The notes under the pieces were generated by a model. That model saw only the letters and a list, made by a program, of their open reading frames with translations, was not told the origin of the DNA and made no database searches. From contig OZ024745.1 of NCBI GenBank assembly GCA_964016885.1, positions 27,032,001 to 27,096,000 on the forward strand: a stretch of 64,000 nt of DNA, written 5' to 3'. This document shows, one piece after another, positions 20,611 through 53,941 of the stretch. Positions within the stretch are counted from its first letter, which is position 1. The number at the start of each line of letters is the position of its first letter. A program made the translations under genes and the position numbers. Source of the DNA: Eledone cirrhosa (Eukaryota).

Positions 20611-21474
20611 ATTTCTTTATTAGCCACAAGGGCACAAAAGAAGGGGACAAACACAAATGGGGAGTTTACATACAGGTATATGAAAATAAAACTATTAATA
20701 AAATAACAAATAACAATTGAAATCCCCAATAGGGGGGGGGGGGGGCGTTACACAGGGGTTGTACACACCCCGAAAAAATGTACAACCCTCATCTCCAGGA
20801 GCACCAAGAGTGAGTACTCCCTTCCTCTCTTCCTCTTTTTCCTCAACCTACAGGCTTATATAGAGAGAAGGCCCAACTACTCGGGCCATCTTTGCCACAT
20901 TCACCCACCTTTTATAAAATTTGCTGGGGTACAGCACCTCTCTCTCCATCCTGATTCTTCTTCCAAAATGATATTTGAAAAAACGAATCAATTGTTCGCC
21001 GGAGAGAAAGGTGTCTGACCTCAGCCCTTTTAACCTCGTCCACCATATAACATCTTTCACCATAGCCATAACACATAGGAAAACCGCCTCTCCATCGTTT
21101 TTGAAGGAGGGTGGCGGTTTGATCATGACAATGGACTCGGTGGTCAACTGGATTGGTCCCAACCGCGACAAAAGTCGTTCTACATAGCCCCACAGGTCGG
21201 TAACGCCCGGGTAGTGTACAAATGCGTGCGCGACGGTTTCCTCGTCGCACACGCATCTCGGACAGATCTTTTTCGAAGGGTCCCTGCCCGGGCGCCCGTG
21301 TCTGTAGAGCTTGTCTCGAACTGGTAGAGCTCCTCGGTAGCACTGCCAGGCCAGGGACTTTTGGAAGTTGTCCATTGATCCCGGGCGGAAGGTCCAACCG
21401 AACAGACTGGCCAATTCGTCCTCCTCTACGCCTAGAGTTTCTCCGAGCGTGTCGTCGCACTTGCTGCGGACCAA
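20611..21474 (-). mobile_element. Tx1-clade LINE, subfamily A, 5'-truncated (ORF2 C-terminus plus 3'UTR), in (GATA)n
   Basis: ORF 20848-21474 matches the ORF2 C-terminal zinc-finger region; GATA repeats on both sides. Confidence 0.93.
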
Positions 21475-21483
21475 GATAGATAT

Positions 21484-21500
21484 ATTTCTTTATTTGCCAC
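21484..21500 (-). mobile_element. 17-nt extreme 5'-truncated Tx1 insertion (3' terminus only)
   Basis: ATTTCTTTATTTGCCAC, identical to the end of the copy at 48274, between GATA units. Confidence 0.7.
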
Positions 21501-21515
21501 GAGATAGATAGATAA

Positions 21516-22085
21516 GTTTCTTTTATTTGCCACTAGGGCATCAAAAGTGGGACAAGTACAAAGGGGGGAGTTTACACAAAAAGGCGTCCTCAATAAGGAG
21601 GAGGCAATAACAAAATATAAAAATAAAATAAGATATAACAAAAATAAAATTTTTAACAAAATCCTCAATAGAGAGGAGGCGCCTTGGGGGGTCGCACACA
21701 CCCCCGAAAAAAGTGTGCAACCCTTTTCCTCAGGAGCACAGAGAGGGGGTGCTCCCTCGTTCCTTCCTCTTTTCCACCTACAGGCTTATGTAAAGAGAAG
21801 GCCCATTCACACGGGCCATTCTCGCCACTTTCACCCACCTTTCATAAAAACGACTGGGGTGCAGCACCTCTCTCTCCATCCTGATCCTTCTTCCGAAATG
21901 ATATCGGAAGAAACGGACCAGTTGTTGGCCAGAGAGAAAGGTGCCTGACCTCAGTCCTTTCAGACGCGTCCACCATACAACCTCTTTCGCCATGGCTATT
22001 ACGCACAGAAACACCGCCTCTGCTTCATCTTTGAAGGGGGGAGGCGGCTTGATCATTACAATAGACTCGGTGGTCAACCGGATCG
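21516..22085 (-). mobile_element. Tx1-clade LINE, subfamily B, 5'-truncated
   Basis: 3'UTR and ORF2 end nearly identical to 40538-41108; GATA on both sides. Confidence 0.93.
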
Positions 22086-22123
22086 AGATAGATAGATAGA
22101 TAGATAGATAGATAGATAGATAT

Positions 22124-51500: not shown

Positions 51501-51656
51501 GATCTGAATAGGCAACCATGGACATTTGTGGACAGCTTAACATATCCCTATCCTTCTTTCTAACTAGAACCCTATCTAGGTACGATCTAGATGTTCCGCT
51601 GCGATTAATTCACGTCCACAGTGGCACAGTCGGAAAATCTAGTCGATATCTATCGG
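48554..51656 (-). mobile_element. Tx1-clade LINE, subfamily A, 5'-truncated and inactivated (3.1 kb)
   Basis: ORF2 homology split over frames; YADD changed to SADD, short deletions, frameshifts near 49890 and 49490. Confidence 0.94.
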
Positions 51657-51674
51657 AGATAGATAGATAGATAG

Positions 51675-51941
51675 ATTTCTTTATTAGCCACAAGGGCGCA
51701 ACAAGAAAAGTGGACAATACAAAGACATGCCGGGGATTTTACATACAGTCGTGTAAAAAATATAAAAACAAACAATTTCAACAATCGAAATCCCCAATAG
51801 GGGGAAGGCGCTACATATGGGTTGTTTAATACCCCGTCGATAGAACAACCCTCAACTCCAGGAGCGTGTTGTGCAAGTGCTCCTTTCTTCCTTTTGCTCT
51901 CTTCCTCAACCTACAGGCTTATAAACAGAGAAGGCCCAATC
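51675..51941 (-). mobile_element. Tx1-clade LINE, subfamily D, 3'UTR-only copy
   Basis: As 48274-48533; followed by (GATA)n 51942-52011. Confidence 0.88.
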
Positions 51942-52013
51942 ATAGATAGATAGATAGATAGATAGATAGATAGATAGATAGATAGATAGATAGATAGATA
52001 GATAGATAGATAT

Positions 52014-53941
52014 ATTTCTTTATTAGCCACAGGGGCACAAAAGAAGGGGACAAATACAAAGGGGGAAGTTTACATACAATAAAAACGTGTAAAATGTTAT
52101 CACAGATGGAATTTAAAAGTTAGTCGATTTTCCCCAATAGAGGGAGACAGTTTATATGGGTAACACATACCCCCGAAAAGAAATGTGCAGCCCTCATCTC
52201 CAGGAGTACGAAGAGTTTGTACTCCTTTCCTCTCCTCCTCCTTTTCCTCAACCTACAGGCTGATATAGAGAGAAGGCCCATTCACTCGGGCCATTCTCGC
52301 CACTTTCACCCACCTTTCATAAAACTTGCTGGGGTACAGCACCTCTCTCTCCATCCTGATTCTTCTTCCAAAGTGGTATTTGAAAAAAAGAATCAGTTGT
52401 TGGCCGGAGAGAAAGGTGTCTGACCTCAGCCCTTTCAACCTTGTCCACCATACAACCTCTTTCGCCATAGCTATCACACAAAGGAAAACCGCCTCTCCTT
52501 CGTTTTTGAAGGAGGGTGGCAGTTTGATCATGACAATGGACTCGGTGGTCAACTGGATTGGTCCCACCCGCGACAATAGTCGTTCTACATAGCCCCACAG
52601 GTCAGTGACGCCCGGGCAGTGTATGAATGCGTGCGCGACGGTTTCTTCGTCTCGCACGCACCTCGGACAGATTTTTTTTGCAGGGTCCCTTCCGGGGCGC
52701 CCATGTCTGTAGAGCTTGTCTCGAACTGGTAGAGCTCCTCGGTAGCATTGCCAGGCCAGGGACTTTTGGAAGTTGTCCATCGGTCCCGGGCGGAAGGTCC
52801 TACCGAACAGACTGGCCAGTTCATCTTCCTCTACGCCTAGAGTTTCACCGAGCGCGTCGTCGCACTTGCTGCGGACCAACCCTCTATAGAATGACGAAGT
52901 GGAGTCTGCACTGCTCGCCGGGTCCGCCTGCCAGAGGGCTGTGAGCGCCTGAGCACATTCGATGTGCCAGTCGCCCATTTTCCTCGGTCTTTGCTTGACC
53001 CAGGACTGCAGCTCGGTCAGCGAGACGAGTCGTGGGAAGGCTCGCCTCACGAACGGGGCCCACACCGGTTGTCAGGTGAGGAATACGTAGAGATGCCGCA
53101 GCCTGAGCGCGTGTTTGCGCATCGTCAACCACGGCATCCCCAGCCCTCCGTTAGAATGGTGTTGGCAGCAGATGGATCTTCTCACCAAAGGAGCCCGCCT
53201 CTTCCAAAGGAATTGGAAGAGCGCGCGCTCCATTTTGGCGAGCGTTTTGGCTGGACAAGGTACGACGGTCAAGCGGTAGTAGATGGCGGACGCTATAAAA
53301 GTGTTCGCCACCTCCGCTCGACCTTTCAAGGATAGTTTGCACTCGGCCCACTTCTGGGTGAGTGCAAACACCTTGGCCGTCACTTCGTTCCAGTTCTTCT
53401 CCACCTGGAGGTCCGGACCAAACCAGACCCCGAGCAGCTTTACCGGTCCTTCCGTCCAGCGTCCGACGACGCCATCGGAAGGCATCGGTCTGCCTCTCCA
53501 CGATCCGATTTGCAAACCGATGGACTTGTCCCGGTTCAGCTTCGCTCCTGTGAGACTTTCGTATTCCTTCAGTAAGGTGCCGACTTCCTCGATTTGCGAG
53601 GCGCTCGACACCATTACTGTCACGTCGTCGGCGTAGGCCGACGCCGCTTTCCGCAGTCCCGGTTCCAGAGGGATGCCCTGCAATAGCTCCAGCTTCCGCA
53701 GTAGTGGCTCGAGAGTCAGTACGTACAGAAGGGAGGAGAGAGGGCATCCCTGTCGAATGGATCGCGTAATATGGAACGGCTCCGAGAGGTAGCCGTTCAC
53801 CTTGACCCTTGAGCAGATGTTGCTGTTGTGCATTGCAGCAATCCAGCGCCTGAACACGGGTCCGAAGCCTGCCGCCTCGAGCACCGCATCCAGGTAACGA
53901 TGGTCAACCCTATTGAAAGCTTTAGACTGATCCAAGTTGAT
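52014..53941 (-). mobile_element. Tx1-clade LINE, subfamily C, 5'-truncated within the RT
   Basis: INLDQSKAF...YADDV...zinc finger in one frame with a single TGA at 53072-53074; the 5' junction shares GAT with the flanking GATA. Confidence 0.94.

Follow-up and report, generated by a model that had tools for sequence, protein, structure and literature searches.

Long interspersed nuclear elements (LINEs) of the L1/Tx1 type occupy the GATA microsatellites of a 64,000-nucleotide stretch of the Eledone cirrhosa genome (OZ024745.1, positions 27,032,001 to 27,096,000; hereafter the window), and across the genome their target is a short motif, TATCT, the copies lying mostly within GATA repeats and in one fixed orientation. 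The 3.0-Gb genome was searched with a 21-base pattern of the element 3' end that covers subfamilies B, C and D and their close kin and misses subfamily A and diverged ends. NN-TATCT follows 11,638 of the 13,789 exact ends found (84%) and NN-TATCTATCT, that is two TATC units, follows 8,190 (59%), against 0.20% and 0.008% of positions, respectively, in the 60 random 10-kb stretches (600 kb) that supplied the background rates. I hold it about 70% probable that four LINE subfamilies (A to D) insert at TATCT in this orientation, likely through nicking of the GATA strand by the endonuclease of open reading frame 2 (ORF2) combined with pairing of the RNA 3' end. An earlier note on this DNA had called the element GATA-specific; the strong draw to GATA repeats stands, but the true motif is the five-base TATCT, and TATAT and TCTCT are tolerated.

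The nine insertions of the earlier note were all recovered in place, as nine minus-strand 3' ends in three stacks with GATA between them. Eight were located by a regular-expression search and the end at 48554, a one-base variant, by reading the sequence. Nine was nevertheless not the full count, since a tenth copy, on the plus strand, had been overlooked; nor do the copies form one family, but four subfamilies that are about 77-85% identical over ORF2 DNA. Subfamilies are assigned below by the 3' untranslated region (UTR).

20558..20609, (GATA)13, 3' flank of stack 1, running on as a degenerate GATA/GGTA repeat to about 20471
20611..21473, minus strand, 5'-truncated copy, subfamily C
21484..21502, minus strand, 19-base stub of the element 3' end, between short GATA spacers at 21475-21482 and 21503-21514
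21516..22085, minus strand, 5'-truncated copy, subfamily A, 96% identical to the 40538 copy
22087..22122, (GATA)9 spacer with a copy on either side
22124..22607, minus strand, 5'-truncated copy, subfamily B, 98.9% identical to the 52014 copy
22611..22722, (GATA)4+23, independent 5' flank of stack 1
23594..23751, plus strand, tenth copy, a short 3' fragment in a dispersed repeat, at a single TATCT in non-microsatellite DNA
40477..40536, GATA/GACA repeat, 3' flank of the long copy
40538..45808, minus strand, long subfamily A copy, 5'-truncated within ORF1, equivalent to bases 457-5716 of a 5.7-kb full-length element
45809..45944, GATA/GACA repeat, independent 5' flank of the long copy
48245..48272, degenerate GATA repeat, 3' flank of stack 3
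48274..48535, minus strand, short 5'-truncated copy, subfamily D
48554..51656, minus strand, 5'-truncated, frameshifted copy, subfamily C, with (GATA)3 at 48540-48551
51675..51944, minus strand, short 5'-truncated copy, subfamily D, with (GATA)4 at 51658-51673
51945..52012, (GATA)17 spacer
52014..53941, minus strand, 5'-truncated copy, subfamily B, with the independent 5' flank (GATA)3 at 53939-53950, followed by TA and GA repeats

As had been claimed, orientation relative to the repeat is uniform: in all nine copies the element sense is the TATC strand, and each end abuts GATA. GATA is also seen at the 5' truncation points, but only three of the nine 5' junctions (22607, 45808 and 53941) are independent, because neighbours in a stack share a spacer, which borders one of them on the 3' side and the other on the 5' side. 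With three independent junctions, the window alone cannot separate a target from a tail, hence the whole-genome analysis. Two further statements hold in the window but not beyond it. All eight perfect (GATA)≥4 tracts of the window adjoin a copy, as against 6 of 10 tracts of at least four units in the 600 kb of random genome, a small sample. Likewise, no 3' end in the window lies in a TA (103 tracts), CA/TG (98), GA/TC (29), TATG (44) or GGT/ACC (72) tract, while genome-wide some copies, a minority, are lodged in (TA)n and (TC)n.

Target motif across the genome

Both junctions were called in a sample of 120 copies chosen solely for the similarity of their 3' UTR, with the 30 top matches taken for each of the subfamilies A to D; 60 of these were extended upstream. 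TATCT is present at the 3' junction of 111 copies. At least two perfect TATC units are found at the 3' side of 86, at the 5' side of 89 and at both sides of 75, and GATA in the opposite sense was seen in 0 of the 120. Most of this cannot be ascribed to nesting, in that 36 copies lie directly behind another copy while the 84 that are not nested have the same flanks. Once these 36 and the 11 near-full-length copies are removed, 73 stand-alone truncated copies remain, of which 45 have at least two TATC units at the 5' junction, compared with 0.10% of random positions. In addition, TATCTATC (two or more units) occurs within 35 bases upstream in 38 of 40 independently sampled full-length 5' ends, which were read on the 5' side only. 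Repeat context distinguishes element ends from the motif at large, a second unit following TATCT at 70% of ends and at 100 of 2,386 background motifs (4%).

Target-site duplications containing non-repeat letters were identified in 15 copies. Most are 11-22 bp long and start at or beside TATCT (L028, 18 bp; L062, 20; L073, 17; L086, 11; L087, 13). The upstream copy of the duplication, lying in unique DNA, contains TATCT, and the motif therefore existed before the insertion. The tenth window copy is bounded by a duplication of 12-13 bp (23581-23593 and 23755-23767), and an empty paralogous form of the site, present in 19 contigs of run X1 and 3 of run X5, contains the duplicated bases once and TATCT once. 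Next to the 3' end of the inserted copy stand a further 3-4 bases (TAT or TATC) that this empty form lacks and that must therefore come from the RNA. A scripted search for empty paralogous sites among the sampled loci gave none that was usable, simple repeats having swamped the matches, and comparison of L028 with public contigs gave two joints only, from diverged paralogues, and no clean empty allele.

The earlier note had named the observations that would sink its reading, namely a lack of 5' GATA, or both orientations, in most copies; neither was found among the 120 genomic copies. Its proposal that the repeat is the target and not just a templated tail likewise survives, on the strength of the 45 of 73 stand-alone 5' junctions, the lack of reversed copies among the 120, the duplications and the one empty site.

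Several observations count against so simple a picture. Four of the 120 copies come from the window, and a few others are neighbours in the same stack. About 16% of 3' ends lack TATCT: a positional sample of 30 ends comprised 13 with at least two units, 8 with a single TATCT, 4 with TATAT, 2 with TCTCT, 1 of ATT type and 2 others. Moreover, TATC is missing from the called 5' boundary in 20 of 95 truncated copies, some of them clearly deletions or mis-called boundaries, and the few bases contributed by the RNA make the 3' statistic partly dependent on it.

The stray sites are informative in themselves. Four of the 120 copies start in TATAT, and a TATC tail is missing from the strays that lie in (TA)n and (TC)n. 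TA tracts account for 13,366 bases of the random DNA and GATA tracts for 380, a difference of about 35-fold; the preference for TATC is thus strong but not absolute. Two pattern searches looked for other microsatellite targets and found 297 and 364 ends. The 30 ends read from each set were all strays of the TATC or ATT group; the class in which A is followed by a non-T base lay outside both searches.

Two kinds of repeat were noticed beside copies. A dispersed repeat that terminates in CACACCCGTG and then gives way to TA or TATC tracts is present at L093, L122, L135, L366 and L456; in each of these five sightings, the CACACCCGTG-ending repeat lies beside a copy of a TATC-group LINE, once reversed in pure (TA)n. 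At L003, the copy is flanked on both sides by a minisatellite in which a few terminal bases of the element 3' end recur many times together with TATC units.

Target-primed reverse transcription is the established mechanism for such elements, and the flanks can be accommodated within it as follows. The ORF2 endonuclease would nick the GATA strand beside AGATA, and the RNA 3' end (...GAAA-NN-UAU(C)) would pair with the freed end and prime reverse transcription, thereby supplying a little of the repeat (TAT or TATC). Reverse transcription would mostly stop early, and the second strand would be cut about 11-22 bases away, so that the resulting duplication rebuilds a TATCT site next to the 5' end of the inserted element. 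A site rebuilt beside each new copy accounts for the mixed head-to-tail stacks, and GATA microsatellites, being rows of the TATCT motif, become hot spots.

Element structure and a probable change of target

The element 3' end consists of AATAAA(A)GAAA and two subfamily-specific bases that lead directly into TATCT, with no poly(A) tail. The long copy in the window carries the following reading frames.

40804..44238, minus strand, open ORF2 of 1145 residues, with an apurinic/apyrimidinic endonuclease-type (APE-type) endonuclease, a reverse transcriptase (YADD at 686) and a C-terminal CCHC zinc motif (1008)
44263..45771, minus strand, remainder of ORF1, 502 open codons of a 594-residue protein, with a CX2CX4HX4C zinc knuckle

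In ORF2, domain searches place the N-terminal endonuclease (PF03372) at residues 31-235 and the reverse transcriptase (PF00078) at 520-763, and found no RNase H family. The catalytic motifs are present (N9, E39, Y112, D141/N143, D202, D226/H227 and YADD 686). The C-terminal CCHC motif at 1008 reads CPRCVCDEETVAHALVHC and the ORF1 zinc knuckle CYLCGTRGHLRAVC. The earlier suggestion of an intact and possibly active ORF2 is borne out as far as the open frame and its motifs go, but this copy has lost the 5' UTR together with about 83 codons of ORF1; being incomplete, it cannot serve as an autonomous source. Other copies in the genome appear intact, to judge from their open frames. One, L021, has a 208-base 5' UTR, an open 594-residue ORF1 and an open ORF2, and is 98.9% identical to the long window copy over L021 bases 457-5716. 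Going by the 98-99% identity among its copies and its 369 exact 5' ends in the genome, subfamily A is young.

Some structural peculiarities were observed in passing. L070 is full-length and joins a subfamily A 5' part to a subfamily C 3' UTR, which suggests recombination or template switching between subfamilies. The ORF1/ORF2 boundary (window 44239-44270, minus strand) contains a splice-donor-like GGTAAGT or GGTGAGT, lying over the ORF1 stop codon in subfamily A and followed by a pyrimidine tract before the ORF2 ATG. This arrangement is found in TATC and ATT families alike, and the motif also in L021, L032, L048, L067, L069, L100, L396 and L409. Most 5' UTRs contain a GTAAG/GTGAG motif and then, 60-75 bases on, a T-rich (G/A)TAG; no spliced copy was noticed.

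Elements of Tx1 type are characterized by a CCHC zinc knuckle in ORF1, a C-terminal CCHC motif in ORF2 and the lack of RNase H, all of which are features of the ORF1 and ORF2 described here. Protein searches with phmmer gave 283-304 bits against fish proteins annotated TX1 and Danio BAC82609.1, 162 against human L1 ORF2 and 100-134 against plant L1. Membership of the Tx1 clade, which the earlier note had asserted, is thus likely from domains and scores, but formal placement is incomplete because the tree contains no identified reference element: the node joining the present group to the fish group has a Shimodaira-Hasegawa-like approximate likelihood ratio (SH-aLRT) of 84-93 in a tree without vertebrate L1, in which the fish TX1 names are annotations by similarity. 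The fish and turtle proteins tested are 34-39% identical over the reverse transcriptase and form a separate branch. The nearest named protein, from Argonauta hians, is 66% identical over the same domain and falls inside the radiation that comprises the TATC families and their ATT-flanked relatives described below. A sister group of ORF2 proteins of about 1,150 residues (P0002, P0003, P0177 and kin), about 50% identical over the reverse transcriptase, forms clusters of up to 732 members in public assemblies. A metagenome scan gave more distant elements only, and the ESM Atlas reverse transcriptase/endonuclease clusters without names only.

Random stretches of the genome also hold relatives with about 70-75% DNA identity and the same 3' architecture, followed by (ATT)n (L201, L215, L220, L227, L233 and L234). 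In one such family, F, 28 of 30 3' ends are followed by ATTAT(T) and 0 of 30 by TATCT, and on the 5' side of several copies there are ATT tracts, or duplications that begin with ATT. The window contains an old member of this wider group.

6998..7332, plus strand, old, internally deleted relative, 66% identical, whose 3' end is followed by TTATT as in the ATT-flanked sisters

In a maximum-likelihood tree of reverse transcriptases (51 rows), subfamilies A-D form one clade (SH-aLRT 100), to which the ATT-flanked families E and H are sister (SH-aLRT 99), with ATT-flanked F and G and the Argonauta protein outside; a 20-row tree of intact proteins agrees. One TATC clade nested among ATT-flanked sisters implies a single switch, and a single change of target, from ATT to TATC, is likely on the basis of these trees. 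The TATC group would then descend from an (ATT)n-targeting ancestor whose target is still used by the closest sister subfamilies.

What changed in the protein? Eighteen endonuclease positions separate 14 TATC from 11 ATT sequences. One of them is Ser194 in the TATC group, Ile or Val in the ATT group, within the motif WTWxNR-x-G. This motif, WTWxNR[S or I/V]G, aligns, weakly (E 0.053), with the grafted hairpin loop of an L1 endonuclease variant (PDB 2v0s), and that loop alters nicking preference (PMC1950540). It is likely that the switch was tied to endonuclease changes, among them the replacement of Ile/Val by Ser in what is predicted to be the minor-groove hairpin loop. Three considerations temper this view of the switch. 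Both trees are quick searches without bootstrap. As the switch occurred once on the tree, the 18 positions are inseparable from shared ancestry and are candidates only. Finally, in the L1 study loop shape counted for more than loop sequence (PMC1950540).

A particularly useful comparison is offered by L021 (TATC) and L391 (ATT-flanked, family E), which share 77% reverse transcriptase identity and are both apparently intact, ORF1 and ORF2 of L391 being open. Family E (L261-L266, L220/L391) forms head-to-tail arrays of full-length 5.84-kb units with 5-8 ATT units between them; nine full-length units lie in a row at G000:C1:423,367,668-423,414,580 (L261-L266). The family E search query took in the junction and the 5' end of the next unit, which biased its 30 loci to arrays, and these loci were left out of the flank counts.

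A wider hypothesis, which I put forward tentatively and rate somewhat below even odds, is that an octopod Tx1-like radiation preserves within one genome both sides of a single recent switch, from ancestors aimed at ATT to a daughter clade, now of more than 13,000 copies, aimed at GATA. Fewer than 20 endonuclease positions would be diagnostic, the Ile/Val-to-Ser change would be part of the cause, the daughter would sit in about half of the long GATA tracts and would have helped to lengthen them, and neither target would have been described for the group.

Alternative explanations

The main rival to nuclease-directed insertion at TATCT places specificity in RNA-DNA pairing: a relaxed endonuclease would nick AT-rich sites in general and only ends able to pair with a read-through UAUC... 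would be extended. The switch would then date from one ancestral copy that landed in a GATA tract and inherited a new 3' read-through. This explanation accommodates the TAT or TATC given by the RNA at one 3' junction (the 23594 copy), the presence of TAT right after the terminal dinucleotide in 117-118 of 120 copies, the acceptance of the near-matches TATAT and TCTCT, and the 3' end architecture common to the ATT- and TATC-flanked families. I nevertheless consider it unlikely. Copies in (TA)n or (TC)n carry no imposed TATC tail, and the targeted pattern searches (which left out the A-then-non-T class) disclosed no TA- or TC-specific daughter family, while 18 endonuclease positions differ consistently between the groups. 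In Tx1 and R1 elements, target choice is credited mainly to the endonuclease (PMC4494074).

A second possibility is that insertion is near-random and the element itself makes the GATA tracts, through a templated 3' tail and 5' slippage or a carried leader, in the manner of the RTE microsatellite makers. The 6 of 10 long GATA tracts of random DNA that adjoin a copy fit this notion, as do the 3-4 extra units between the duplication and the 5' end of L021. In addition, the 25 full-length copies of the first sample were lopsided, the median count of TATC units being 18 on their 5' side and 4 on their 3' side (p = 6e-4), an asymmetry absent from 95 truncated copies. By contrast, upstream duplication copies in unique DNA contain TATCT, copies at a single motif gained no tract (L028, L062, L087 and window 23594), and truncated copies have 5' tracts too. 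For the independent set of 40 full-length 5' ends, the median unit count came to 8 (p = 0.08 versus truncated copies of the same subfamily, p = 0.003 versus all truncated copies). Some full-length heads follow unique DNA or another repeat with only a six-base ATCTCT stub (L445, L447, L451, L452, L454 and L456), and that of L359 lies behind pure (TC)n. A templated tail of RTE type would place the repeat at the 3' end only, at any site; here it is found also at 5' truncation points and in upstream duplications, and is missing from the (TA)n and (TC)n copies. I regard near-random insertion with self-made tracts as very unlikely, although the element may play a partial role in lengthening GATA tracts. 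The idea of a long (TATC)n leader on every full-length copy was largely set aside, as the median fell from 18 in the first 25 copies to 8 in the next 40 and the counter-examples are clear; a short ATCTCT stub is inherited in 28 of the 40 full-length 5' ends.

That no active targeting takes place, copies having survived or been amplified in GATA-rich, low-recombination regions or stacked by recombination and duplication, draws on the 36 of 120 copies directly behind another, the occurrence of L023 twice in tandem and the long uniform arrays of ATT-flanked family E, but is hardly credible: it is contradicted by a register that is exact to the base, and an orientation that is fixed, across thousands of sites and many chromosomes, by stacks that combine different subfamilies with different truncation points, by the 84 non-nested copies, whose flanks are of the same kind, and by the presence of the pattern already in young copies that are 98-99% identical.

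Neighbouring features and known systems

The rest of the window contains other repeats. A GIY-YIG endonuclease frame at 24074-24619 (PF01541) lies beside a palindrome of 218 bases (23835-24052), which is perfect and recurs in part at 25014-25080; the arrangement looks like the end of a Penelope-like element. Long inverted repeats or hairpins with 82-98% arm identity occur at 7592-7936, 14649-15225, 15931-16323, 18606-19441, 31897-32275 and 32549-32746, and are possibly related to Penelope or to miniature inverted-repeat transposable elements. Very long arrays of simple or minisatellite repeats comprise AC/ACAG at 3957-6327 (2.4 kb), GGT/GTGTG at 37700-40380 (about 2.7 kb), a 19-base unit at 54625-55240 and a 37-base unit at 62140-62699.

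Microsatellite targeting by Tx1-type LINEs is already known and the class of mechanism is not new; what is added is a target absent from the literature searched, TATCT/GATA, in an octopod mollusc and at very high copy number. The closely related, apparently intact L021 and L391, with their different targets, constitute a natural pair for domain or residue swaps. Such a pair bears on how APE-type retrotransposons change specificity and on the respective shares of the nuclease and of RNA-DNA pairing, and is relevant to the engineering of targeted LINE insertion. On a practical note, GATA microsatellite markers in this genome often adjoin a high-copy repeat.

The earlier note did not recognise the lineage as described, and the literature searched does not contradict its novelty, Repbase and Dfam lying outside the comparison. 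Full-text literature searches yielded no GATA-, TATC- or AGAT-targeting LINE, their scope excluding those two databases, the 2004 original on Kibi and Koshi and the fuller Tx1 target list of PMC4494074. The repeat annotation of Octopus vulgaris has 80 L1-Tx1 families in its supplement, 13 of them recently active in its Table 1 (PMC13282606). These probably include the present families or their orthologues. As to their targets, the word 'target' has 0 matches in the searched text and supplement of that paper and 'GATA' 0 in its supplement (PMC13282606), and a term search of the octopus-brain LINE paper gave no mention of Tx1 (PMC9115989).

Among known systems, the repeat class of the (ATT)n-flanked sisters is also that of Dong, an R4-clade element with a restriction-like endonuclease. 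Dong inserts in (TAA)n (PMC3812793), R4 is listed among the clades with such an endonuclease (PMC4640811), and Dong-R4 is reported to have been active recently in O. vulgaris (PMC13282606). Given the different endonuclease, the shared repeat class would be convergence. Waldo and Mino, which belong to the R1 clade, resemble the present elements as APE-type LINEs with sequence-specific microsatellite insertion, and differ in clade and in target. In insects, they occupy (ACAY)n and (AC)n, respectively (PMC3812793).

Closer counterparts are found within Tx1. Crocodilian families such as Tx1-1_Crp, Tx1-5_Crp and Tx1-2_AMi insert in (TTCC)n or (TTTC)n, and a Tx1 family is taken as target-specific when one sequence type makes up more than 20% of its flanks (cited passages of PMC4494074). 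Among the 13,789 ends described here the corresponding figures are 59% for two TATC units and 84% for TATCT. The crocodilian and octopod elements thus share a preference for tetranucleotide microsatellites; unlike the pure pyrimidine targets of the former, TATCT is mixed and AT-rich, and the closest relatives in the same genome use another repeat. Kibi, in (TC)n, and Koshi, in (TTC)n, are Tx1-clade elements of teleost fish, as the earlier note had stated and as the cited passages of PMC4494074 and PMC3812793 state. The pyrimidine targets (TC)n, (TTC)n, (TTCC)n and (TTTC)n are not those of the present families, in which TCTCT accounts for 2 of the 30 positional ends and the (TC)n copies are strays of TATC subfamilies. 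Like Kibi and Koshi, the Eledone elements are two-ORF LINEs with an APE-type endonuclease that insert in microsatellites and have related families with different repeat targets; they are set apart by the TATCT/(GATA)n target, by their ATT-flanked sisters and by their octopod mollusc host.

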